64,000 bases of DNA from a bacterium. Its GTDB lineage: Bacteria; DUMJ01. A model generated the notes under the pieces. The model had not been told where the DNA came from, did no database searches, and saw nothing but the letters and a program-made list of their open reading frames with translations. Shown piece after piece: positions 10,213 through 53,390 of the stretch. Location of the stretch: positions 72,958 through 136,957 of the forward strand of contig JBMFOH010000001.1 of NCBI GenBank assembly GCA_049969715.1, given 5' to 3'. The position numbers and the translations under genes were made by a program. Every line of letters begins with the position of its first letter. Position 1 is the stretch's first letter.

Positions 10213-11312
10213 TACGAATCCTCCATATCTTCCCCTGAAAATTCCGATGTGTCTTTCTGATGTACAATGAGACCTTTTAAGATTTCTTCTAAGGTAGATC
10301 TTAGATCTTCTAAGTTCTCCCTTGTATCTGACATCCCTACTAGGATGTTCTCTGGTGCCTTCATAACTATAACTGACCCGATATATCCACTAAGAAGGTC
10401 TTCTTCCTCTTCTCTCAACGTGTTTAATAGGAGTCTCTTTTTAGGTGTTTTTATACAGTTAAATGCCTCTCCTTCCCTGAATGAATTTGTTCTGAAGAAA
10501 AATGGAGAGAGACTCAAGAGATTTATCACCTTATTATAGTCATTCAGGGAGTAGATTGCCTTATAACTGGTTGGACTTTTTATCTCTCTGCCTATAGTAT
10601 CTCCTAAGATGTCTTCTCTCTCTTCAAAGAGTCTATATCCATACATTCTTAGTAGGTCTTCGGGAGACATACCTCCTCTTTTAAGGGAGAATATCTTTTC
10701 ATCTACGAACCTCTTTATCTTTTCCTTATCCTTTTCCCAGTATGGGAAGAAGACATAGCCGACGATATAAAAGCTTTTATATGGGACAAGTCTAGTGAAT
10801 ATGATCTCTCCTTTGGCAATATCTAGCCTTTCTATTATAGGGTCAAAGACCGTATAGGCTTTATTTAAGAGTAGGTCGGATAGGTCGAGCCTATTGATAC
10901 TTGGGAAGATCCCTTCTATCTTGTAGAAAGACCAATATGTAGAGAGCCAATTCGTAAAAAAATTCTTTATATCAGAAGGGGCATCTCCTTCTTCTAAAAA
11001 TAGTTCTAGAGGTGTCTTCCCCTTAGAGACGTATTCATTGAACATAAACCATTCAAGCGGATATATAGCCTCATTCTCATCCAAAAGGTCATTAAACGTT
11101 TCTATAGAAGAAAGCTTCTTCATTTCGAATTTACCGAGTACATCCCTGAATGAATCTTTGTATCTAGAGAACGAATACTCTCCTAGAAGAAATAATGCAT
11201 CAATCTTCTTCTCGTTTACGTCTATAGATTCCTCATAAAATGGTAAACAGCACTTCTTATATTTCTTCCCACTTCCACAGGGACAAGGGTCGTTTCTCCC
11301 TATGTTAGCCAT
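10212..11312 (-). CDS. SEC-C motif (SecA C-terminal-like zinc finger) domain protein of unknown function
   Basis: The N-terminus [22 protein letters not shown] is nearly identical to the SecA tail in this window. The remaining ~340 aa have no recognisable motif. Confidence 0.6.
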   Translation of the reverse strand: MANIGRNDPCPCGSGKKYKKCCLPFYEESIDVNEKKIDALFLLGEYSFSRYKDSFRDVLGKFEMKKLSSIETFNDLLDENEAIYPLEWFMFNEYVSKGKTPLELFLEEGDAPSDIKNFFTNWLSTYWSFYKIEGIFPSINRLDLSDLLLNKAYTVFDPIIERLDIAKGEIIFTRLVPYKSFYIVGYVFFPYWEKDKEKIKRFVDEKIFSLKRGGMSPEDLLRMYGYRLFEEREDILGDTIGREIKSPTSYKAIYSLNDYNKVINLLSLSPFFFRTNSFREGEAFNCIKTPKKRLLLNTLREEEEDLLSGYIGSVIVMKAPENILVGMSDTRENLEDLRSTLEEILKGLIVHQKDTSEFSGEDMEDS

Positions 11313-11315
11313 ATA

Positions 11316-12611
11316 TTACAGATCTCCTTTTGATACAAGTTTTACAAATAGGGGCATAAGCTGATGCCCTAAGAGCCTTCCTAGGGAACCTTTTGCACAC
11401 TCCTTCTCTGAGTATTGTGTAGTTCCATCGCTAGAGATCTTATCTCCTGAAACGATAAGAGGTACAGGGTCATCTGAATGTGCCTTTAGTGTGCAAGGGG
11501 TAGAGTGGTCAGCTGTTACTGTGATTACTACATTAGAAAGGTCTATTTTTGGCAAGAGATTCCCGAAAAAGTACTTATCTATATTAGAGATACTGTCCCT
11601 TTTTTCTAGGGCTTTTCCATCGTGACCTGGGACATCAGGTCCTTTGAGATGTATATAGAGGGCATCGAATTTATTAAGAGATTGAATTGCTTTTTCCGCC
11701 CTTAGAGGATAATCTATCTCAGGATTTCCAGTTGGAGTAGGCAGTTCTACTATCTCCATACCGGTCAACATTGCTATCCCCATTTCTACAGGCATCTCGG
11801 CAAAACAGCCAAACCTTAAGCCAAATAGATTCTTTATATCAGGGAATTCTGGTAACCTATCTCCTGCATCCCTAGTAAGTATTACATTCCCTATCATCTT
11901 ACCTTGAGACTTTCTCTTTCTATTGACCTCTGATTCATTCAATACAAGATGACTCTTCTGGACAAATTCGTTTGTTAGGTCGGCTGCCCTCTTTGCCTCT
12001 ATACTGCTATCTAGAGGCTGGCAGACCTGAAGGTAGGGCTCAAACTTTTCTTTAGCTACCCCGAAGTATCCAACTTTATCATACGCTGGATCAGTATTGG
12101 TGATATTAGCTGATAGAGGACCATCTAGACATCTTATCCATAAGACACCCCTATGTTCTACAGTACTAATGAACTTGAATATGGCAGGATAGCTAGTAAG
12201 TTTTACCTTACTATTGACCTCTTCTGCCAACAGTTTTGCCTCCTCAGTAGATAGGTCTCTACCTGCTCTTCTATCCACAAGACGCCTATCTTCATCCATC
12301 GTAGCGAAATTAACCCTAAAGGCAAGGTCTCCTGGTTTTAAATCAATTCCAGAGGCAAAACATTCCAATGGACCTCTACCTGTATAATACTTTTCTGCCT
12401 CATATCCTAATATACTTATAACCGCTATGTCAGACTCTGGTGCTATCCCTGGTCCTACTGTATCTACAATGCCACTTTTCCCACTTTTTGCTAGTCCATC
12501 CATATAGGGAGTGTCGGCTGCCTCAAGGGGAGTCTTTCCTCCTAATTCAGGGCAGGGTCTATCACCTAGCCCATCCAGTACTATATAGAGTAGTTTATAC
12601 ACTGTTATCAC
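11316..12611 (-). CDS. apgM: cofactor-independent phosphoglycerate mutase, archaeal type
   Basis: 431 aa with LDGLGDRP near the N-terminus and TADHSTP near the C-terminus (metal-dependent alkaline-phosphatase-like fold). Confidence 0.75.
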   Translation of the reverse strand: MITVYKLLYIVLDGLGDRPCPELGGKTPLEAADTPYMDGLAKSGKSGIVDTVGPGIAPESDIAVISILGYEAEKYYTGRGPLECFASGIDLKPGDLAFRVNFATMDEDRRLVDRRAGRDLSTEEAKLLAEEVNSKVKLTSYPAIFKFISTVEHRGVLWIRCLDGPLSANITNTDPAYDKVGYFGVAKEKFEPYLQVCQPLDSSIEAKRAADLTNEFVQKSHLVLNESEVNRKRKSQGKMIGNVILTRDAGDRLPEFPDIKNLFGLRFGCFAEMPVEMGIAMLTGMEIVELPTPTGNPEIDYPLRAEKAIQSLNKFDALYIHLKGPDVPGHDGKALEKRDSISNIDKYFFGNLLPKIDLSNVVITVTADHSTPCTLKAHSDDPVPLIVSGDKISSDGTTQYSEKECAKGSLGRLLGHQLMPLFVKLVSKGDL

Positions 12612-12674: not shown

Positions 12675-13847
12675 TTATTCTATCTTAAACATAGTTATTA
12701 GGACTACAGCAATCAATGAGCATACCGCTCCAAAAAAGAACGGTGTGGATGGAGATATCTTATCCCATAGTAAACCAGCAATAGCACTTGCTGGTATTGC
12801 CAGTATCCCTACTGAGGCATTATACAATCCAAATGCAGTTCCCCTTATTTTTTCATCTACCAGATGTACTACTAAGGATTTCGCTACTCCTTCTGTAGTT
12901 GAGTAGTATACCCCATAAATGATGTATAGGACCCATATATGCCAGGGCAACCTCGCTATGGCAAAACCTATATAGGTAATAGCATATATAAGCCATCCCA
13001 ACCTTATTACATTAACTCTTCCGATCTTATCCGAGAGGACCCCACTTGGGAGAGAGAGCAATGCATAGAATAGATTAAATATAGCTATGATTACTGGTAT
13101 TGTTGTAGGCGATACCCCTACGTTTTCAGCTCTTAGGATCAAAAAAGCATCACTACTGTTTCCTAATGTAAAGACCATCATTCCAATAAAGAACAAAAGG
13201 AACTTGCCTTTAAGTAGTGATGGGTCTATCTTGAATCCTGTTCCTACCTTTTCTCCTACCCTTTCTTTTACAAATAAACCTATGAGGATTATTGTTACAA
13301 AGGCAACAAGTCCACCGATTATAAATATATATCTATATTTCATCAATCCAAATGAGGCGAACCTTATCAATAGATATGTAGCTATTAATGGACCAACAAA
13401 TGAACCTAATGTATCTAACATCCTCTGAAGACCAAAGGCAAAACCTGTTCTAGATTTACTAGATGACTTTGCTACAAGTGCATCTCTTGGGGCATCCTTT
13501 AATCCCTTCCCAACTCCATCTAACAACCTAAGACCTAAAACACTACCTGCCCCTGTTGTTAAGAATAATAGGAGTCTTCCTATAGCAGACAATAGGTATC
13601 CAATGAAAACGATAGACTTCCTTTTACCTAGTTTATCAGAGATGATTCCAGAGAGGATTTTAAATATACTCACTACAGTGGTCATACTCCCCTCAATGAG
13701 GCCTATAGTCTCTTTACTTAGACCTAGTACCTGGGCGTAGAATGTGGGGAGTATAGGCGATATCATATCCTGGCTTAGACCACCAAAGAAGGCGACCCAT
13801 CCCAATACAATAATATTTTTTGTTCCTTCTTTATTGTTCCCTTTCAA
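12675..13847 (-). CDS. MFS transporter
   Basis: 390 aa, about 12 TM helices, MFS-like loop motifs (G..SDK.GRR). Confidence 0.75.
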   Translation of the reverse strand: MKGNNKEGTKNIIVLGWVAFFGGLSQDMISPILPTFYAQVLGLSKETIGLIEGSMTTVVSIFKILSGIISDKLGKRKSIVFIGYLLSAIGRLLLFLTTGAGSVLGLRLLDGVGKGLKDAPRDALVAKSSSKSRTGFAFGLQRMLDTLGSFVGPLIATYLLIRFASFGLMKYRYIFIIGGLVAFVTIILIGLFVKERVGEKVGTGFKIDPSLLKGKFLLFFIGMMVFTLGNSSDAFLILRAENVGVSPTTIPVIIAIFNLFYALLSLPSGVLSDKIGRVNVIRLGWLIYAITYIGFAIARLPWHIWVLYIIYGVYYSTTEGVAKSLVVHLVDEKIRGTAFGLYNASVGILAIPASAIAGLLWDKISPSTPFFFGAVCSLIAVVLITMFKIE

Positions 13848-13867
13848 GACACATCGCTCCTTTCTAT

Positions 13868-13903
13868 AATAAAAATAGACTTCTACCTAATTTTAGGTAG
13901 AAG
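13868..13903 (-). terminator. intrinsic terminator downstream of the GH3 gene
   Basis: Inverted repeat CTTCTACCTA/TAGGTAGAAG (13880-13903). On the minus-strand transcript it is followed by a T-rich tract (TATTTTTATTATAG). Confidence 0.5.
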
Positions 13904-13953
13904 TCATCATCCCTTTAAGGGATATTTCTGTTAGGCTTCATCACCTGTGAAAA

Positions 13954-16236
13954 CTATTTAACTTCAAATCTACCACTTAATCTTATGTCAAGGGAAGATG
14001 CACCTATCATTATCTCAAAGACTCCTGGCTCTACTATCAATTTCATATCCATATCTAAGAATGCTAAGTCTTCTGGGGTAAGAGTAAAGTTTATGCTCTT
14101 CTTTTCTTTGACATCAAGTGTAACCCTCTTGAATCTTCTAAGCTCTTTTACTGGTCTTGATACACTTGAAACTAGATCACAGATATAAAGTTGGACTATC
14201 TCATCTCCTTTATATCTTCCTACATTCTCTATATCCAAGGAAATATTTACCTTTCCATCTTTCCCTATGACCTCAGGACTAATCTTAAGGTTACTGTATT
14301 TGAACTCTGTGTAGCTTAAGCCATATCCAAATGGGAATAATGGTTGGGTTCCTCTTAGGTCAGCATAATCTTCTACTCTCCCTGAAGGCTTATAGTTATA
14401 GTATAGAGGTAATTGTCCAACAAATTTTGGAAAGGTAATAGGAAGCTTTCCTCCAGGGTTATAGTCTCCAAATAGTATATCTGCTATAGCATTTCCTCCT
14501 TCTTCTCCAGGATACCATGCTTCTAGAATGGCTTGAACTCCATCGATCCACCTTGTCATAGTGATGGCACTCCCATTTATAAGTACTACCACTACTGGGG
14601 TTCCTGCGTTGGATACCTCTCTTATTAGGTCTTCTTGAACCCCAGGTAGGTCTAGATTACACCTATCTCTTTGTTCTCCTTCGGTCTCAGGGACAGAGTT
14701 TCCAACAAAGATAATCGCTACATCACTACTCTTGGCTATCTCTACGGCCTCCTCAAATCCTTTTTTAGATAGATCTACTAAGTCACATCCCTGGGCAAAT
14801 CGGACCTCTATCTTTTCTCCAACCTTATTCTTGATCCCTTCTAACGGGGTTACTACCTTTATTCCATGTCCACTATAACCACCTAGTCTAGGAACCGCCG
14901 CATTTGGCCCAATAACAGCTATAGACTTGACATCCTTAGATAATGGCAAGATTCCATTATTTTTTAGTAAAACCATCGCCTCTCTTGCTGTTTTTAATGC
15001 CAACTCTCTGTGCTCTTTACAGTCACATACCTTTTCTGCATACTCTGGGTCTACATATGGATTATCGAATAGTCCTGTCCAGAATTTTACCCTTAGTATC
15101 CTTCTTACTGCTTCATCTACTACACTCTCAGAGAGTTTATTCTCCTTGACTAGAGGTAAAACCTCTTCAAAACAGTCACTTGCTGGTAGTTCCATATCTA
15201 GTCCTGCTTCAAGGGCTTTTTTGGCTGCTTCCGCTTTTGAATCAGCCACTTTATGCTTGGTATAGATATGGATCACAGAACCATAGTCAGAGACTACATA
15301 ACCCTTAAATCCCCATTCCTTCCTTAATATATCTGTGAGGAGCCATCTGTTTGAAGAGCAGGGAATACCGTCTATAGAGTTGTATGCTGCCATTATGGAG
15401 AGGGCTTTGCCTTTTTCTATGGCGGATTTAAATGCTGGGAAGTATATCTCTCTCATGAGTCTTTCCGAGATGTGTATAGCGTTACTGTCTCTACCCCCAT
15501 CACCAACAAAATTGGCTGCAAAATGTTTTGGGGTAGTTATAACTCCTTGCCCTTGTAATCCTTCTATAAATGAAACTGCCATAGCTGAGGTTAGATATGG
15601 GTCCTCTCCATAAGTTTCTTCCGTTCTCCCGCATCTAGGGTCCCTAGCGATATTTATAGTCGGAGAGAGTGCCTGGTGGATACCTCTAGATTTGGTCTCT
15701 TTGCCGATAGCAGTGGCAACCTCTTTCATAAGTTCTGGATTCCATGTACTTGCTATTGCTATAGACTGTGGAAAACTTGTTGAACCTTTAGCCATACATC
15801 CATGGAGACACTCGTCATGTATTAATACGGGTATCCCTAGTCTTGTATTCTCTATAACATACTTTTGAATCTCATTTGCAAATTCTGCCCCTTCTTTAGG
15901 AGAGAACGGTCTTAAGACACAACTCAATTCCCCTATGCCATATCTTTTATCCCCTTCTCCCTCTGTAATGACTTCCTTCCAGTGCTTCTTCCAGTAGTTT
16001 CCCGAGAGAGCCTCCATAAGCTCTCCTTCACCAGCAAAAAGCCTGAATAATACTTCATCCAGTCTTTTTGTATACTTTTCGGGTAACCCCTCAAAGAGAT
16101 CAGAAAATAGCTTCCACACATGGAGCATACTTGCCTTTAACTGTCCAACCTTTTCCTCTAAGGTCATCTTAGAAAGGAGAGCTTCCACCCTTTCATCTAT
16201 AGATAGCTCAGGGTTTAGATAATCCTCTTTCATCAC
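13954..16236 (-). CDS. bglX: beta-glucosidase, glycoside hydrolase family 3 (BglX-like) with C-terminal FnIII-like domain
   Basis: 760 aa with the GH3 N-terminal (KHF..GDGG) and C-terminal domains. Confidence 0.85.
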   Translation of the reverse strand: MMKEDYLNPELSIDERVEALLSKMTLEEKVGQLKASMLHVWKLFSDLFEGLPEKYTKRLDEVLFRLFAGEGELMEALSGNYWKKHWKEVITEGEGDKRYGIGELSCVLRPFSPKEGAEFANEIQKYVIENTRLGIPVLIHDECLHGCMAKGSTSFPQSIAIASTWNPELMKEVATAIGKETKSRGIHQALSPTINIARDPRCGRTEETYGEDPYLTSAMAVSFIEGLQGQGVITTPKHFAANFVGDGGRDSNAIHISERLMREIYFPAFKSAIEKGKALSIMAAYNSIDGIPCSSNRWLLTDILRKEWGFKGYVVSDYGSVIHIYTKHKVADSKAEAAKKALEAGLDMELPASDCFEEVLPLVKENKLSESVVDEAVRRILRVKFWTGLFDNPYVDPEYAEKVCDCKEHRELALKTAREAMVLLKNNGILPLSKDVKSIAVIGPNAAVPRLGGYSGHGIKVVTPLEGIKNKVGEKIEVRFAQGCDLVDLSKKGFEEAVEIAKSSDVAIIFVGNSVPETEGEQRDRCNLDLPGVQEDLIREVSNAGTPVVVVLINGSAITMTRWIDGVQAILEAWYPGEEGGNAIADILFGDYNPGGKLPITFPKFVGQLPLYYNYKPSGRVEDYADLRGTQPLFPFGYGLSYTEFKYSNLKISPEVIGKDGKVNISLDIENVGRYKGDEIVQLYICDLVSSVSRPVKELRRFKRVTLDVKEKKSINFTLTPEDLAFLDMDMKLIVEPGVFEIMIGASSLDIRLSGRFEVK

Positions 16237-28927: not shown

Positions 28928-30703
28928 TTATCCTTCTACAAACTCTTCCCTTTCTACTCCAAATTCATATAGGGTTTTATAGAGACCATTTTTCTTTATA
29001 AGCTCGTTGTGTGAACCTCTCTCTACTATTTCTCCATTTTCTATAACCAAGATATAATCTGCCTCTTTTACAAAACCTAATCTATGAGAGATGATAAATG
29101 TAGTCCTTCCCTTCATAAGCTTCTTTATGGCGTCTTTTATCGCTACCTCTGACTCTGAATCAAGCCCTGAAGTTGCCTCATCTAATATGAGAATCCTTGG
29201 GTTATGTAAGAATGCCCTTGCTATTGCAATGCGTTGCTTCTGACCTCCAGAAAGATTTATACCGGCTTCATCTCCAATTACTGTGTCATAGCCGTTTGGA
29301 AGGTTCATAATGAATTCATGGGCATTGGCAAGTTTGGCTGCCTCTATTACCTCTTCCCTACTGGCATAAGGGGTTCCATAGCGTATATTTTCTAGGATGG
29401 AGCTAGAGAAAAGTACAGTCTCCTGGGGTACTATACTCATCTGCCTTCTAAGGCTCTGAATCTGCAGATTCCTTATATCTATTTTATCTATCAATATTAC
29501 CCCTTCCTGAGGATCGTAGAATCTCATAAGGAGATTTACTATGGTAGTTTTTCCTGCCCCACTTCTTCCAACAAGAGCTATTACTTCTCCTGGAGAGACT
29601 AAGAAAGACACATTCCTAATGATGGGTCTCTCTTTTTCATATCCAAATGTTACATTTTTAAACTCGATCTCTCCGTTTAGCCTCAATATAGAAATGGCAT
29701 TTGGAAGTTCCTTTATACTGGGCTCGGTTTCAAATAATTCAAAGACCCTTCCTATTGCTCCTGCACTCTGACTTAAATTATTAAAACTTCTTGAGATTGA
29801 ATATATAGGGTCTGTAAGCATTAATAGTGCAGTGAAGAATGCCATAAGGTCTCCTGATGTCATATTTCTGTTTAACACCTGAACCCCTCCAAACCAGAGG
29901 ACAGCTAAGAGTCCAATCGTTTGGAGTAGGGTTACTATTGGCGTTTGAGTTGCCACTATCTTGGCACTCTTTAGTGATATCTCTAGGTTCTCTTTACTTA
30001 CCTCTTGGAATTTGTAGATCTCTGTCTCTTCCATTCCAAAAGACTTTATAAGATGCATTCCTCTTATTTTCTCCTCTATGAGCTTTACTACCTCGGCAAA
30101 CCTCTGTTGAACTTGTCTTGTAACTCTTATCATCTGTTGGCCAAAGTATGAGACTATGGAAGCTATAAATGGAAGGATGGCTAAGGTAAAGATCGTAAGC
30201 CTCCAATTGAGATAAACCATATATCCTAAGGCTCCAATAATAGTAAGTCCCCCTAGTGGTATATCTATCAGGACTGCATTGATCGCTTGAGGGATCAAGG
30301 TGATATCATTAGAGAGACGTGAAACTATCTCTCCTGTATGCCATCTCTCATAAAATTCCATAGAGAGCTTTTGTAGGTGTGAATATACTTTTACCCTTAG
30401 GTCATTCATCAATCGCTGTGTTATTACTGACTGGGTATAAATCTGGAGGTATTGTAGTATACCCTGGACTATGGTTACGCCTATTATTACAAAGATTATC
30501 GTGTGGAGGTTCAACATCGCTTGATTATAATCTGACTTTGCATTAAAGACATTATCAAATAGAAATTTTAGTATAGGGGAGAAGATTAATCTTGAAGGGG
30601 CAAGTAGGAGGGTAAGAAGAAAAAGTTCAAATACTAATAGCTTATAAGGCTTTATATAGAGAAATAATTCCTTATAAACCCTTGAAATATTACCTTTCAT
30701 CAC
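28928..30703 (-). CDS. ABC transporter permease/ATP-binding protein (fused exporter, MsbA-like)
   Basis: 6-TM domain followed by an NBD with Walker A (GRSGAGKTT), signature (LSGGQKQR) and Walker B (ILILDEATS). Confidence 0.85.
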   Translation of the reverse strand: MMKGNISRVYKELFLYIKPYKLLVFELFLLTLLLAPSRLIFSPILKFLFDNVFNAKSDYNQAMLNLHTIIFVIIGVTIVQGILQYLQIYTQSVITQRLMNDLRVKVYSHLQKLSMEFYERWHTGEIVSRLSNDITLIPQAINAVLIDIPLGGLTIIGALGYMVYLNWRLTIFTLAILPFIASIVSYFGQQMIRVTRQVQQRFAEVVKLIEEKIRGMHLIKSFGMEETEIYKFQEVSKENLEISLKSAKIVATQTPIVTLLQTIGLLAVLWFGGVQVLNRNMTSGDLMAFFTALLMLTDPIYSISRSFNNLSQSAGAIGRVFELFETEPSIKELPNAISILRLNGEIEFKNVTFGYEKERPIIRNVSFLVSPGEVIALVGRSGAGKTTIVNLLMRFYDPQEGVILIDKIDIRNLQIQSLRRQMSIVPQETVLFSSSILENIRYGTPYASREEVIEAAKLANAHEFIMNLPNGYDTVIGDEAGINLSGGQKQRIAIARAFLHNPRILILDEATSGLDSESEVAIKDAIKKLMKGRTTFIISHRLGFVKEADYILVIENGEIVERGSHNELIKKNGLYKTLYEFGVEREEFVEG

Positions 30704-41184: not shown

Positions 41185-41191
41185 GTTCTTA

Positions 41192-41222
41192 GGGGATAGC
41201 CTAGAGGCTATCCCCTTTTTTA
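41192..41222 (+). terminator. intrinsic terminator
   Basis: GGGGATAGCC-TAGA-GGCTATCCCC followed by TTTTTTACTTTTT. The loop overlaps the herA-like stop codon. Confidence 0.7.
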
Positions 41223-42913
41223 CTTTTTATCCTTCTTATCAGATCGATCTCAGATATCATAAATGAATCTGTTCTATATTCTGATTCTTTACTCTCTTCA
41301 TACCTTGTAGCCCAGGCAGGCATAGGAAACCTTATAAGAACCGTTTGGGGTAGATTCGGCTGATAAACAAGCATCTGTCCAGGTATTAGATATTGAACCC
41401 TTCTTTTATTTAATGGACCTAGATAATCATATTCACTGTGCTCCGCCTCACTAGCATCCATATTGCCGCACACTCTTATAGATGCGTTTGATACAACCCT
41501 ATGAGATACTTCACTAGCAGTTTGCTGTGCTCCTACCAGTATTATCCCTAAACTTCTTCCTCTTTCAGCTATATCGAGGACGGTATCTGCGATGGGACTT
41601 TCTCCTGTTTGAGGAGCATATTTATTGAGTTCGTCAAGAACTATAAATACCAAGGGCCAAGGTGTTCCAGATTCCTCCTTCTTTTCTACTATAGATTTAA
41701 GGACTGCGCCTACAGTAAAATATTGAGCCCTTGGTGTAAGTCTGTGAATATCTATCACATTTACCTGGGCTTCCTCCCAATCTATTCTATAATCTGTTTC
41801 CTCAAAGGGTAAAGACTCAGGCAGTATCAGTGAGCCTATATCGTGTTCAGCCCTATACAACCTTCTTATAAATGCATCTCGAGTGGATTGAGCAACCCTT
41901 CCAAGAATATCATCTATATTGTCTTCTAATGTCTTTACCATACTTTCAATAGACTGAAATCCAAACTCTCCACTCATCTCTTTATTAAGCCAGTTAGTAG
42001 CCAATTTTATTGCCAAATACAGCTGACTTGTATCAGAGAGATCTTTAGGAGAGAATAGATACCAGAATAAGTCTTGAGTTGCAATATCTTTTATAGTCCA
42101 GGCAAAAGGCTTTACTCCATCCATTCTACTTTCAGTATTTGGTAGGACCTCTTCATACTGCCCTCTCCTTGGCCTGGGAGGAGCATAGAATCTTACACTT
42201 CCAAATGGTTTTGGCTCAAGTCCCATAATTTCATATATCTTTTTCTCCTGGTCACTTAACATTACATTTGGTTTATCCAAGAATAAGAGGTCTTCTCCCT
42301 TTACGTTGAATATTACTGCATGAGTATTCCTAAGTCCTGCTGCCGGATAGGCACTTAGAACCTCTTTAAGTTTTGAAAAGAATGAGTAGAGTAAAAATGT
42401 GGCATAAGAGGTCTTAGTTGCTACACCACTCTTACCGCTTATATTTATATGGGCACCTTTCATCCCAAGGAGAAAGTCTAGGTCTATGTATGCAGGGGCA
42501 TTGTTAGAAAGTACTCCACAAGGTATCCTTCTTTTACCCATCGTATCATAATAAAGGGCAAACTCTGTGTCTTGAGCAGTAGCCAATCTTACCTCTTTCC
42601 CAGGCTTTGGAGGGACCTTTGGACTGCTTCCATCATCTGCCAATGTCCTAGTAGCTACTACGTGACAGTAATATGTAAGGTTGGCATCAAAGAGTCCTTG
42701 AGAATGAAATCTTGCCTGTTCATTAGTCTCTATCCCTTCTAATTTATGAATTACCTGATCTACAATTCCATATATCGTTACATTCCCAAACCTAGGATAC
42801 TCACATGAGGTTACTACAATATCATCGACTTGAACAGCGTAATCTGAATTTACCTCTATATAAAATTCAAATGGGGTTGCATCCTTAGTTCCTAATACTA
42901 TTCCTATTGCCAT
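41201..42913 (-). CDS. herA: HerA-like (FtsK/HerA superfamily, DUF87-type) ATPase
   Basis: 570 aa. N-terminal HAS-barrel-like segment (GIVLGTKDATPFEFYIEV...VDDIVV), a P-loop-like ISGKSGVATKTS, a Walker-B-like FIVLDELNKY and a C-terminal GIILVGAQQ block. Confidence 0.65.
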   Translation of the reverse strand: MAIGIVLGTKDATPFEFYIEVNSDYAVQVDDIVVTSCEYPRFGNVTIYGIVDQVIHKLEGIETNEQARFHSQGLFDANLTYYCHVVATRTLADDGSSPKVPPKPGKEVRLATAQDTEFALYYDTMGKRRIPCGVLSNNAPAYIDLDFLLGMKGAHINISGKSGVATKTSYATFLLYSFFSKLKEVLSAYPAAGLRNTHAVIFNVKGEDLLFLDKPNVMLSDQEKKIYEIMGLEPKPFGSVRFYAPPRPRRGQYEEVLPNTESRMDGVKPFAWTIKDIATQDLFWYLFSPKDLSDTSQLYLAIKLATNWLNKEMSGEFGFQSIESMVKTLEDNIDDILGRVAQSTRDAFIRRLYRAEHDIGSLILPESLPFEETDYRIDWEEAQVNVIDIHRLTPRAQYFTVGAVLKSIVEKKEESGTPWPLVFIVLDELNKYAPQTGESPIADTVLDIAERGRSLGIILVGAQQTASEVSHRVVSNASIRVCGNMDASEAEHSEYDYLGPLNKRRVQYLIPGQMLVYQPNLPQTVLIRFPMPAWATRYEESKESEYRTDSFMISEIDLIRRIKSKKGDSL

Positions 42914-43902
42914 CTTTGACCTCCTTTGTGGGCTTCTGCTATAAGTCTTCTCAATGTTACCCTTATATGATCTAGAGGATGAAACATTGCCCTAAGTCTT
43001 CTCTCTAGACTTTCTAAGGGTGCTAGATTCTCTGGAGCCCTGCTACTTAAAGTGTTGCTACTAGCCAAGGTTGGTAAGAGGTACCCTGAGAATTGCGCTA
43101 AGTCTATTACCTCTTCTAATGTTAAATTTGAGGGGGCTTCCAATCTTACCAGTCCTAAAAATTGGTGTTCAAAATACTGAGGGTCTTTTAGTCTTAGATA
43201 CCAAGAATATTTTAATGGCAGGTCCTCTGATGTTTCTATAAGAAATACAGGTGTCCTCTCTCCTCTCCTTAATGAGACTAGTGTCTCCCAACATCTACCT
43301 GTAAGATAGTATCTACGGGTACTTTTTACAAAACCTAAAGTGACCCCTGTTTTAGAAAACGGCACCTGTAATGGTCCATCAGCAATTACAGTATAACCCA
43401 TCATAGATAGTTTTAGTGCTGTTTCCTTTTCTCTTTCTCTCATCTTTTGAAGAAACATTCTGTATATACCCTCGTCCCCTGTTTCTACTGCATTTACTGG
43501 TTCATATCTTGCCTTCCCCAAAAGAAGGGGACTATTTACTGTTATCCCTGGAGGGAATACTATTATACATTCTGCCTGGTTTCTCTCCATCACCTTACCC
43601 TTACTTAGATCAAATGCCCCAACTACGAACTCTCCAAGCAGTGCAGACCTACCTGAGTTACCAATCATAAGATGGGTATCTGTTCTACGAACCCCGTCTA
43701 CCAAGGCTACCTTATCTATTACTACTTTTCTATCTATCTTTATAGGTCGCCAGTTTTTCCCCTCTAGTTCTACGTCTTGATTTACCCTTACCGGTAGGGT
43801 CTCATTATTCAGGTCTACTGGGTCATCTAAGGTATCATTCCACCAGGTTTGAGATATCTCGAACCTTTTTATAAACTCAATTGCCGAACTATCTAATTTC
43901 AT
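42904..43902 (-). CDS. NurA-like nuclease candidate (HerA partner)
   Basis: 332 aa and Arg-rich. The gene is translationally coupled to the ATPase gene (10-nt overlap) and carries hhhDG motifs (ALVDGV, VIADGP). The assignment rests on context and weak motifs. Confidence 0.4.
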   Translation of the reverse strand: MKLDSSAIEFIKRFEISQTWWNDTLDDPVDLNNETLPVRVNQDVELEGKNWRPIKIDRKVVIDKVALVDGVRRTDTHLMIGNSGRSALLGEFVVGAFDLSKGKVMERNQAECIIVFPPGITVNSPLLLGKARYEPVNAVETGDEGIYRMFLQKMREREKETALKLSMMGYTVIADGPLQVPFSKTGVTLGFVKSTRRYYLTGRCWETLVSLRRGERTPVFLIETSEDLPLKYSWYLRLKDPQYFEHQFLGLVRLEAPSNLTLEEVIDLAQFSGYLLPTLASSNTLSSRAPENLAPLESLERRLRAMFHPLDHIRVTLRRLIAEAHKGGQRWQ

Positions 43903-44029
43903 ATTATCTTTTTTCTTATAGAGATTGGTAATGATAGGAGTTCGGAAAGGATAAACCCCTTTATGATGTCACTTTGAGTATAGAGAGGTTGTAATTCTTT
44001 TTCTTCCATAGGCTTTTTAATCTCTTCGT

Positions 44030-45016
44030 TCACTTTTGCTCACCCTCTTGTGGAGGAACCATCTTAGAGAATGATTCCCTCATAGATGTATCAGATTGAA
44101 TATTCTTTAGATTATAATAGTCAAAAACTCCAAGCTTTCCCTCTTTAAATGCCTGGGCAATAGCTCTTGGAATTTCTGCTTCTGCCTCTACCACTTTTGC
44201 TCTCATTTCCTGTGTATATGCCTTCATCTCTTGTTCTTGAGCTACAGCCATAGCTCTCCTCTGTTCTGCTCTTGCCTGGGCTATTCTTTTATCAGCCTCT
44301 GCCTGGTCTATCTGAAGTCTCGCCCCTATATTGGCACCTACATCTACATCTGCTATATCTATAGAGAGTATCTCAAATGCAGTGCCTGCATCTAGCCCTT
44401 TGGCGAGTACTGTTCTAGATATACTATCAGGATTTTCCAGAACCTCCTTATGAGATGCTGCTGACCCTATAGTGGTAACTATCCCTTCTCCTACCCTTGC
44501 AATTATCGTTGCCTCTCCTGCTCCTCCTACTAGTCTATCTATATTTGCCCTTACTGTGACCCTTGCCTTTGCTTTAAGTTCTATCCCGTCTTTGGCAACC
44601 GCTGCTACTACAGGGGTCTCTATAACCTTAGGATTTACGCTCATCTGAACTGCTTCTAAAACGTCTCTTCCTGCTAGGTCTATAGCTGCTGCCCTGGTAA
44701 AATTTAATGGGATTCCTGCTCTTTCTGCGGCAATGATGGCATCAACAACCTTGTCTACATTTCCTCCTGCCAGATAGTGGGCTTCCAATTGATTTATATT
44801 CAAATCTAGTCCTGCCTTTATAGCCTTTATAAGGGGAAGTACTATCTTATGAGGAGGTACCCTTCTCAATCTCATTCCTATAAGGGTTACTATGTTCACC
44901 CTTACTGATGCAGCCATAGCAGATATCCAAAGCCCAAGTGGGACAAACTGGAAAAATAAAATTACAGCAATAATAATGACTATTATTGGCAACCAATAAA
45001 CAAAACCGACCTCCAT
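44030..45016 (-). CDS. floA: flotillin-like protein FloA (UPF0365/YqfA family)
   Basis: 328 aa with an N-terminal TM helix and an SPFH-like core that closely resembles YqfA. Confidence 0.8.
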
Positions 45017-45026
45017 ATTGCACCTC

Positions 45027-46304
45027 CTAAATCTTTCTCACGAATATTTTATTACCTACTACCTTTGTAACTATTACCCTAGTACCAGAAGATATATATT
45101 CGCCTTCCGTAAGACAGTCATACCTTTCCCCTCCTATTTCTACTATTCCAGTAGGCCTCAACAGGGTAACTGCTGTACCTTCTTTTCCTATAAGTCTTTC
45201 CTGCTGAACTACTACGGTAGTGAATCCTCCCTCTGATCTCTCAGACTCTTTTAAAGCAACACGTTTCCAGATAAAGCTTTCAGGTAGGTAACGTATAAAT
45301 AGAATCACTATAGCTACAATGAGTACAGTTGCCATAGTAAGAGACCTTACAGCGTTTATTCCTCCTCCCAATACTAGGTAGAGGCTAATAAATATAGATA
45401 CTATCCCTGTTATCCCAGTAATACCAAACCCTGGGGTATGAAGTTCTATAAGAAGGAGTATTATACCTCCTATTATCAAGATAATTGCTTCTATTCCTGC
45501 TAGACCTGCAAGATAATTACCAACAAAGGTAATCACTATAAGTGTAATACCTAGTATTCCAGGTATTCCAAATCCAGGTATCTGAAATTCTATGAGGAGT
45601 AAGAGTATACCTCCAAGAAGGAAGAGAAAACTATAAGTACTATCTGAAGTGATCTGGGATAACCTCTCTGACCAGTTCATATTTTCATCTATCACTCTAG
45701 GATTTGATAGGTTTAGCTTCTTCCAGAGTTCTTCATAATTATTTGCTATAAAGTCTCCATAGCCAAGCTCTTTTGCCTGTTTAGATGTAATAGTAAGAAG
45801 CTTCCCTGGTGGCTTTATGTTCTTTAAAGAAATACTTTGGTCTACCATTGCCCCTGCTATCTCTGGATTCCTTCCTCTCTTTTCTGCAGTGGCTTCAAAT
45901 TCAGCCCTTAATGCAGATACAGTCTTTTCTTCTAAAGGACGTGGCTCGGCTGCACCCATAGAGCCACTTTCAGTGAACGCAATCTTATTACATGCCAATG
46001 CTATGAGCGCACCAGCAGACCATGCTCTGTTCTTTATAAATGCTACTGTAGGAATAGAACCTTCCAAAAGGATATCCCTAATCTTTACAGCAGAGGCCAC
46101 TAAGCCTCCGAATGTATCTATCTCTACTATAACATAACTGGCATCATCTCTAGCAGCATCACTTAGTCCTCTCCTAACAAGGGTAAAGATCCCTTCATTA
46201 ATCATCCCTGAGATATGGATGATGTAAACAGTATTCGCTCTACTATAGCTAGGAAAGATCAATACGATTATTAGGACCAAGAGAGAAAACAAGACCCTTT
46301 TCAC
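45027..46304 (-). CDS. nfeD: NfeD-like membrane protein (ClpP-class protease domain, TM region, C-terminal OB domain)
   Basis: 425 aa with a signal/TM segment, a ClpP-like domain, 4-5 TM helices and a C-terminal NfeD beta-barrel. It lies upstream of floA, as in the yqeZ-yqfA pair. Confidence 0.75.
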
Positions 46305-52637: not shown

Positions 52638-53390
52638 CTATATCAGATTGGCTTCTATTAGAAATTCTTGGTCTGAGAATATACTCCTATAATCTCCAGT
52701 TTTTAAAATCTCTTTATTCTCTCCTAATACATATATCTTATCTGCTATATCTGGAATTATCTTTAGGTCATGGGTAGCAGTTATGATTGTTTTATTTTCG
52801 TTGCGGAACCTTTTGATAAATTCTAGTAGTTCCCTGACACTTCTTGGGTCTAGCCCATTAGTTGGTTCGTCTAATAGAAGTACAGTAGGTTCTATAACAA
52901 GTAGACTTGCCAATGCTATTTTCTTCTTCTCCCCCTCACTCAATTGATAGGGTGACAAGCCTAATAGGTGCGAGATACGGAAGAAGTCTGCGGTTTCTTT
53001 TATTCGTTCTTTTATCTTATTGGGGTCAAGCCCAAGTTGAATAAGGCCAAAGGCTATCTCATCCTCAACAGTAGGAGAGAAAAGCTGAGCGTTTACATCC
53101 TGAAAGAGTAAGACTACGTTTCTTCTAAAGAATCTATTAAATTCAGGGTCATCAAAACTCTTCTCTGTTATATCCCTTCCAAATGCATATATAGAACCTC
53201 TAGATGGAAAGATAAGCCCATCTAACAGTTTTAAGAGGGTCGTCTTCCCCGAGCCATTTGCTCCGATGATAGCAACACTCTCTCCTCTTTCCACCTCCAT
53301 GTTTATAGAGGCAAGGGCAAATCTATGGTTTAAATACGAGTAACTTACATTACTAAGTTTAAATATCAGCCTTTGGTCTAACCCTTCCAA
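52638..53390 (-). CDS. cbiO: ECF/ABC transporter ATP-binding protein (CbiO/NikO/LarO-like)
   Basis: 250 aa with Walker A GANGSGKTT, signature LSEGEKKKIA and Walker B LLLDEPT. Confidence 0.75.
   Translation of the reverse strand: MEGLDQRLIFKLSNVSYSYLNHRFALASINMEVERGESVAIIGANGSGKTTLLKLLDGLIFPSRGSIYAFGRDITEKSFDDPEFNRFFRRNVVLLFQDVNAQLFSPTVEDEIAFGLIQLGLDPNKIKERIKETADFFRISHLLGLSPYQLSEGEKKKIALASLLVIEPTVLLLDEPTNGLDPRSVRELLEFIKRFRNENKTIITATHDLKIIPDIADKIYVLGENKEILKTGDYRSIFSDQEFLIEANLI

Follow-up and report, generated by a model that had tools for sequence, protein, structure and literature searches.

A predicted bacterial-type NurA–HerA gene pair, probably resident and vertically inherited, downstream of floA in a DUMJ01 bacterium

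Two adjacent genes, predicted to encode a bacterial-type NurA nuclease and a bacterial-type HerA ATPase (a double-stranded DNA, dsDNA, translocase), have been analyzed in a 64,000-nt stretch of bacterial DNA (GTDB lineage Bacteria; DUMJ01; assembly GCA_049969715.1, contig JBMFOH010000001.1, positions 72,958 to 136,957). This whole stretch is referred to as the window, and positions are given in its numbering. Both genes are on the minus strand, nurA at 42904–43902 (332 aa) and herA at 41201–42913 (570 aa). HerA was assigned by Protein Data Bank (PDB) homology, profile comparison and residue mapping, and NurA, which has an RNase-H-like fold, by PDB homology, AlphaFold2 (AF2) modeling and Foldseek search. 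The two open reading frames (ORFs) and their 10-nt overlap (42904–42913) match exactly those given in an earlier, sequence-only reading of this DNA (hereafter, the initial annotation). The nurA stop codon TAG is at 42904–42906, the herA ATG is at 42913, and the final nurA codons contain a Shine-Dalgarno sequence, AAAGGAGGT (42919–42927, minus strand). As the herA start sits 5 nt past this site inside the end of nurA, translational coupling from nurA to herA is plausible. At NCBI the pair is annotated as “hypothetical protein” and “ATP-binding protein.”

The larger protein is matched over nearly its full length by HerA of Deinococcus radiodurans (drHerA, PDB 7F6D chain B), with E = 3.6e-110 in a phmmer search of PDB. 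With the HerA family profile (A2) the match to 7f6d_B reaches 1.6e-195 over profile positions 3–542 of 557, and the next PDB match, a DUF4297-type defence HerA, has E = 9e-6 only. More than 7,800 homologs have been found, the best 120 of them spanning 42–92% identity. HerA residues 2–103 align to the HAS-barrel region of drHerA (14–111), even though the Pfam HAS-barrel model alone remains below threshold (13.3 bits, cut-off 25.2), and a RecA-like core follows. The Walker A motif is GKSGVATKT, with Thr in place of the usual Gly ahead of Lys; drHerA K175/T176 correspond here to K167/T168, the acidic pair E219/D220 of the additional strand, catalytic E (ASCE) class to E207/D208, and D487/E488 of Walker B (VLDELN) to D427/E428. 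All these residues are invariant or nearly so in 26 family sequences, and R451 is also present in the core. The features listed in the initial annotation, a deviant P-loop, a Walker B (VLDELN) and a GAQQ block, are real and invariant across the 26 family members, and its central assignment, a HerA-family ATPase coupled in translation to a NurA-like nuclease, turns out to be firmer than originally claimed.

The 332-aa partner had been described as NurA-like with some hesitation, a non-NurA effector being left as an option; we find a true bacterial-type NurA by sequence, profile and predicted fold. In the phmmer search it matches D. radiodurans NurA (drNurA, 7F6D chain H) with E = 1.6e-15 and Thermotoga TM1739 (1zup_A), described as the first bacterial NurA structure (PMC9960219), with 8.5e-6; the NurA family profile (A1) retrieves the same two proteins from PDB at 3.3e-46 and 3.7e-17, respectively. 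Structure prediction, proposed earlier as a means of comparing this protein with NurA and RNase-H-like folds, yielded an AF2 model with a mean predicted local distance difference test (pLDDT) score of 81.3 and a predicted template modeling (pTM) score of 0.80. Its top Foldseek match is 7f6d_G (E = 7.9e-19, template modeling (TM) score 0.66), followed by 1zup (2.6e-16, TM 0.62–0.71) and, third, a chain of TdpAB, 8wfd_G (2.5e-6, TM 0.47). Later matches include endonuclease V and Tn5 transposase, that is, the RNase-H-like fold class; archaeal NurA structures are absent from the top 50. The Pfam NurA family (PF09376) does not match the window NurA at E ≤ 1, and the link to it is transitive, via a homolog in the Bryobacterales locus L010 that matches both profile A1 (2e-79) and PF09376 (27.6 bits, cut-off 21).

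The catalytic and DNA-positioning residues D53, K201, R309, and W8 of drNurA correspond to D69, K193, R288, and W21 here, and W21, D69, E158, D175, K193, and R288 are invariant in 19 sequences. The weak hhhDG motifs noted previously in this protein are LVDG (D69) and IADG (D175), both invariant in the 19 homologs. In D. radiodurans, mutation of HerA K175, D487, or E488, or of NurA D53, K201, or R309, abolishes activity, and mutation of NurA W8 reduces it (PMC9960219). Every residue essential by this mutagenesis is present in the window proteins, except for the pore arginines considered below, and the W8 equivalent is kept as well. Therefore, judging by the retained and invariant catalytic residues, both enzymes look catalytically competent.

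The pair had been presented as compositionally distinct, with spot counts suggesting GC content near 40–50% against roughly 35% elsewhere, a pattern considered consistent with horizontal acquisition. We do not observe this. The GC content of 41201–43902 is 0.397, compared to 0.3845 in the window; for individual genes it is 0.393 in herA (z +0.4) and 0.404 in nurA (z +0.9), with the mean of 0.384 and standard deviation (sd) of 0.022 over 53 ORFs. At third codon positions, GC (GC3) is 0.295 in herA and 0.319 in nurA (mean 0.324 over the window's 53 long ORFs), and by deviation in synonymous codon usage herA ranks 39th and nurA 16th among the 53, so that codon usage is typical. The proteins had also been described as Arg/Ala/Gln-rich, and this holds in part for NurA, which alone is mildly unusual (Arg 8.4%, z +1.9; Ile 4.8%, z –2.0); the Arg and Lys content of HerA is average, and the Ala-richest protein of the window is the neighboring FloA.

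Eight loci of the same clade (L001–L008), with identities of 60–83% for NurA and 73–92% for HerA, all retain the order nfeD-floA-small ORF-nurA-herA, the convergent AP_endonuc_2 gene, and the SMR and PMT_2 genes; GFO_IDH_MocA is retained in seven of the eight, L006 lacking it. Divergence is proportional across the neighboring genes. As synteny is kept and divergence is proportional in these eight relatives, the comparison indicates that the pair is resident and vertically inherited rather than a mobile island. A recently acquired island could be argued from the somewhat Arg-rich, Ile-poor NurA and from the literature, which holds bacterial nurA-herA to be an ancient transfer from archaea. Yet GC, GC3, and codon usage all lie within 1.1 sd of the window genes, no integrase, transposase, tRNA, or flanking repeats have been seen adjoining the pair, and the same flanks, diverging in proportion, are found in relatives down to 60% NurA identity. 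We regard this explanation as highly improbable, recent horizontal transfer being effectively refuted by composition and synteny. In the closest relative (L005, NurA 83% identical), an N6_N4 DNA methyltransferase gene and a 279-aa ORF (13007–14995 of that locus) are located between GFO_IDH_MocA and SMR; neither the window nor any other relative has this insertion, which is likely to be a small one of the restriction-modification type.

More distant homologs (loci in the L009–L016 range, HerA identity 42–47%), labeled Chloroflexota/Dehalococcoidia, Bryobacterales, and Solirubrobacteraceae, come from Chloroflexota, Acidobacteriota, and Actinomycetota. Of the seven distant loci that cover the upstream region, six (L009, L010, L011, L013, L014, and L016) have nurA ahead of herA, and direct co-oriented adjacency of the two genes is observed in L001–L011, L014, and L016. 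Immediately after herA, five distant loci (L009, L010, L011, L014, and L016) carry sbcD, followed by sbcC where the sequence reaches that far, and in L013 sbcD-sbcC are 2 kb downstream of herA. At the level of the whole family, a search of 1.84 billion representatives with the NurA profile retrieves 2,034 clusters (50% identity), 494 of them at E ≤ 1e-30; the window clade is among the 2,034. The bacterial-type NurA family is thus large (about 2,000 clusters), reaches far past Deinococcus-Thermus, and is joined to sbcCD in several phyla, which supports a role in DNA-end processing.

Some of these loci have features of their own. In L013 (4152–13713) an Exo_endo_phos nuclease/phosphatase gene separates nurA from herA and an AlkA-type glycosylase gene follows herA, the whole forming a cluster of DNA-repair genes. 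In L010, an RVT_1 reverse-transcriptase ORF (10934–11923, minus strand; 3.8e-21) is convergent to sbcC just past nurA-herA-sbcD-sbcC. In L015 (6001–13659), HerA P0066 has as neighbors a DNA methylase, an HhH-GPD protein, another HerA-like ATPase (DUF87), and a HATPase_c_3 protein, and the NurA profile finds no NurA anywhere in this locus; for this stray member of the family, the surroundings may be of the defence type.

We consider it probable, at about 80%, that the two genes specify a NurA–HerA complex of the bacterial type, resident and inherited vertically, and orthologous to NurA–HerA of D. radiodurans and NurA–HepA of Thermus. The initial annotation offered either DNA-end processing or defence as the function of the pair. 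Of the two, DNA-end processing is favored, since relatives in other phyla carry nurA-herA-sbcD-sbcC operons, SbcD and SbcC being the Mre11/Rad50 counterparts, while the defence half of that proposal is left unsupported.

A possible mode of action may be outlined by analogy with the solved and mutagenized D. radiodurans complex, from which the 6:2 assembly, translocation, strand polarity, and cellular role are all inferred. In that complex the hexamer moves the duplex into the NurA dimer, where the strands are split and mainly the 5' strand is cut, leaving a 3' tail (PMC9960219). Here, six HerA subunits would form a ring, and this ring would use ATP (K167/T168, D427/E428, and E207/D208) to pump dsDNA from a broken end through its pore. 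From the pore the DNA would pass to a NurA dimer bound at the HAS-barrel face of the ring, the N-terminal “pin” segment of NurA past W21 might split the duplex, and the RNase-H-like site (D69, E158, and D175, assisted by K193 and R288) would cut chiefly the 5' strand in the course of translocation. A 3' tail suitable for recombination would thereby be left.

Several observations weigh against this interpretation. Neither HerA nor NurA has an above-threshold match in Pfam, NCBIfam, or PADLOC: for HerA, Pfam DUF87 is sub-threshold, the NCBIfam HerA models give about 19 bits with cut-offs of 800–970, and PADLOC matches are weak and partial; for NurA, none of the three libraries gives any match. 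We treat these library scans as uninformative and the identity as settled, because the PDB sequence search matched the 7F6D chains. The segment following W21 (approximately residues 23–28, DTLDDP), at the place of the drNurA pin (residues 10–15), lacks the aromatic residue, and residues 22–37 are modeled with low confidence (pLDDT < 50). The ionic interface is not conserved either, drHerA D78/E80/D81 being replaced by Q66/R68/F69, and drNurA K299/K303/H305/K306 by T278/S282/T284/L285; according to the authors of the structural study, these residues are conserved within Deinococcus only and align poorly beyond it (PMC9960219). No sbcCD genes are found in the 64-kb window by tblastn with sbcD and sbcC from L010 and L011. 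As for the role in vivo, it is unsettled for bacterial NurA–HerA family-wide: Thermus ΔhepA is sensitive to ultraviolet light (UV) and heat, and impaired in transformation and DNA donation (PMC5448004). The nurA-herA double knockout of D. radiodurans is approximately 10-fold more resistant to UV and mitomycin C.

The pore of HerA is also on this side of the balance. The pore residues R495 and R552 of drHerA are Q435 and H492 here, and the alanine mutants of both arginines, which are needed for translocation, lose end resection in D. radiodurans (PMC9960219). Across the window clade, Q, I, or L occupies the first site and H the second, while most other family members have R at the first; their neighbors K431 and R505 are conserved. 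The pore arginines are mechanistic features of drHerA and no formal criterion of the family. We also note A or S at the first site in two Chloroflexota-type members (P0053 and P0071). With Q and H occurring naturally at two “essential” pore arginines, the published model of translocation can readily be tested on this HerA.

Another explanation is that the pair is an anti-phage or anti-foreign-DNA module, with the HerA ring feeding invading linear DNA to NurA for wholesale degradation, by analogy with TdpAB, Sir2–HerA, DUF4297–HerA, and the role proposed for archaeal HerA–NurA. HerA-family ATPases combined with effectors are indeed established defence systems, and weak matches to PADLOC HerA and mad8 models are observed. 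The latter, however, do not reach the level of the family: mad8 scores a window ABC-transporter ATPase (1.6e-13) above HerA (2.1e-9), and we interpret this as generic P-loop similarity, contrary to the defence framing of the initial annotation, for which a PADLOC scan had been suggested. Over all 55 window ORFs, the PADLOC matches (mad3, AriA, PtuA, and mad8) are limited to a pair of ABC-transporter ATPases and the SecA SEC-C motif, and have been rejected as generic cross-matches.

By structure, the NurA model finds the NurA-like TdpAB subunit in third place, but strong PDB profile matches are limited to drHerA and drNurA, with defence HerAs at E-values of at least 9e-6 and TdpAB not retrieved, and neither a tdpC-like modification gene nor any other defence gene is seen in the operon or among the scanned ORFs of the 64-kb window. 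The archaeal HerA–NurA was reported in a 2026 study to degrade both strands and to be possibly antiviral (PMC12977600), the D. radiodurans knockout is not damage-sensitive, and the family member in L015 adjoins a DNA methylase and a second DUF87 ATPase; on the other side, the family is joined to sbcCD in at least three phyla, the composition of the pair is native, and its position among housekeeping genes is fixed clade-wide. We therefore consider a defence function unlikely: the composition is native, the housekeeping context is fixed, a modification or sensor partner is lacking, and defence HerAs are not matched at the level of the family.

Identification with particular defence systems has been rejected as well: TdpAB is matched by fold only, with both a sequence-level match and tdpC absent, and for Sir2–HerA, DUF4297–HerA, and MADS the partner here is NurA, and the best PADLOC match (mad8, 2.1e-9) is weak and partial. 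The two ABC ATPases mentioned above, at 52638–53390 and 28928–30703 (both on the minus strand), match mad3 with 1.6e-35 and 1.7e-34, respectively, and the former also matches AriA, PtuA, AbiLi, and mad8. Hence caution is needed with PADLOC, as its mad3, AriA, PtuA, AbiLi, and mad8 models cross-match housekeeping ATPases.

The neighbors of the pair, described initially as envelope and sugar genes on one side and floA-nfeD on the other, are confirmed by Pfam as FloA, NfeD, a GFO_IDH_MocA oxidoreductase, and an AP_endonuc_2 TIM-barrel protein. On the minus strand nurA and herA are the last genes of the string nfeD-floA-orf44-nurA-herA. It starts with nfeD (45027–46304; Pfam NfeD1b_N, NfeD_membrane, and NfeD), whose stop codon is separated by a 10-nt gap, containing GGAGGTG, from the ATG of the flotillin-like floA (44030–45016; Pfam FloA, 1.5e-164), which is genomic context and no part of the nuclease machine. 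The 44-aa orf44 (43899–44033) bridges floA and nurA by 4-nt overlaps, GTGA with the floA stop and ATGA with the nurA start, and no terminator-like site has been detected on the minus strand from floA to nurA; a weak match to –35/–10 elements is located at 43931–43903. It has no Pfam match, is kept in frame in all relatives examined, and carries a conserved C-terminal motif, DI[IV][KR]xF[IVL]FxEL[IL]SxP[IV]S[ILM]R[RK], the middle part being acidic and variable. A homology search yields 21 clusters of 43–66 aa, restricted to the same clade and always on contigs bearing NurA–HerA relatives. Assignment of orf44 as a partner specifically of floA or of nurA-herA has been set aside; as the matches are confined to the clade, they support neither.

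A GC-rich hairpin with an 11-bp stem (41191–41216, plus strand) is located between herA and the convergent AP_endonuc_2 gene, with the herA stop codon in its loop and the last four herA codons in one arm. The strong terminator that had been placed on this side of the pair is real as a hairpin; as the T-run is present on the plus strand only, it appears to terminate primarily the convergent AP_endonuc_2/GFO_IDH_MocA operon, not herA. The remainder of the window is of a housekeeping nature (SecA, Mur ligase, phosphoglycerate mutase, glycoside hydrolases, MFS and ABC transporters, and cobalamin salvage genes). The sole match of an Rfam scan of the whole window is a cobalamin riboswitch (RF00174, 52418–52593, minus strand, 117.9 bits), adjoining a cluster of CobU, DBI_PRT/CobT, CobS, His_Phos_1, CbiM, and ABC ATPase genes.

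The tight packing of the string, with overlaps or gaps of 4 to 10 nt and no minus-strand terminator between floA and nurA, its recurrence in eight of eight relatives examined, and the conserved, clade-specific orf44 suggest one more option, namely, recruitment of NurA–HerA, with orf44 serving as the adaptor, to a membrane-microdomain operon of FloA and NfeD, for membrane-associated DNA uptake, export, or nucleoid-membrane processing instead of classical resection. It agrees with the departure of the pore arginines and interface residues from drHerA, and with the finding that Thermus needs HepA both to be competent and to donate DNA by transjugation (PMC5448004). The same HepA, however, is soluble and cytoplasmic, and Thermus nurA-hepA can share a transcript with unrelated metabolic genes without a functional link (PMC5448004). 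Furthermore, sampled loci outside the clade never show the pair beside floA, and the eight syntenic loci belong to one fairly narrow clade, where the linkage may reflect plain inheritance. A membrane role thus seems quite improbable. Were it true, this would be a membrane-tethered machine for DNA processing or transfer, lacking the pore arginines and the Deinococcus ionic interface and joined to floA via a 44–65-aa protein, reminiscent of Thermus ΔhepA, which is defective in competence and in donating DNA.

Assignment to a resident NurA–HerA complex has a practical value for annotation, as genes missed by Pfam, NCBIfam, and PADLOC are now confidently placed in a structurally solved bacterial system. 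The deviations in the pore and at the interface and the linkage to floA-orf44 are noteworthy, but on present evidence they define no new system and leave the current understanding unchanged.

Among the closest known counterparts is NurA–HerA of D. radiodurans (PDB 7F6D, 7WRW/7WRX; Xu et al., 2022; Yang et al., 2023, PMC9960219). It has the same order of genes, nurA then herA, and shares with the window pair the SGVATKT Walker A, the Walker B DE, the E219/D220 pair, and NurA W8, D53, K201, and R309. Among the differences, the window HerA falls 48 aa short of drHerA and has a reduced helix-bundle insert, the window NurA has 13 additional N-terminal residues ahead of the conserved Trp, and NurA identity is about 24%. 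R495/R552, the acidic patch of HerA, and the basic motif 3 of NurA are not kept, and the pair is packed behind floA with the clade-specific 44-aa ORF. NurA–HepA of Thermus thermophilus (PMC5448004), likened here by its description, is also of the bacterial type, with a stop/start overlap and genome-typical GC content; each pair lies within an unrelated operon, with which it is probably co-transcribed, the host being malic enzyme in Thermus and nfeD-floA-orf44 in the window. In Oceanithermus, sbcD-sbcC are located downstream of the nurA-herA homologs (PMC5448004), as in the sampled distant relatives.

The archaeal HerA-Mre11-Rad50-NurA system (Sulfolobus, Pyrococcus, and Thermococcus) has the architecture of a HerA hexamer and a NurA dimer that is predicted for the window pair, and both share the HAS-barrel with a RecA-like ATPase and the RNase-H-like nuclease. 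The archaeal-like linkage to Mre11/Rad50 genes is seen in most distant bacterial relatives sampled (HerA 42–47%), but not beside the window pair; identity to the archaeal proteins is below 20% according to the literature, and archaeal NurA has no pin motif and a hydrophobic interface. TdpAB of the TdpABC phosphorothioate restriction system (PDB 8WFD/8WET) combines a HerA-like ring with a NurA-like dimer, as proposed here, with similarity to the NurA model at the level of the fold only (TM 0.47, 13% identity) and no tdpC-type gene adjacent to the window pair. Finally, Sir2–HerA and DUF4297–HerA (PDB 8WIV and 8XAU) share the ATPase core of the FtsK/HerA superfamily around Walker B, where only about 80 residues align (profile E = 9e-6 at best); their effectors are different, whereas the window pair combines its HerA with NurA outside any defence-island context.

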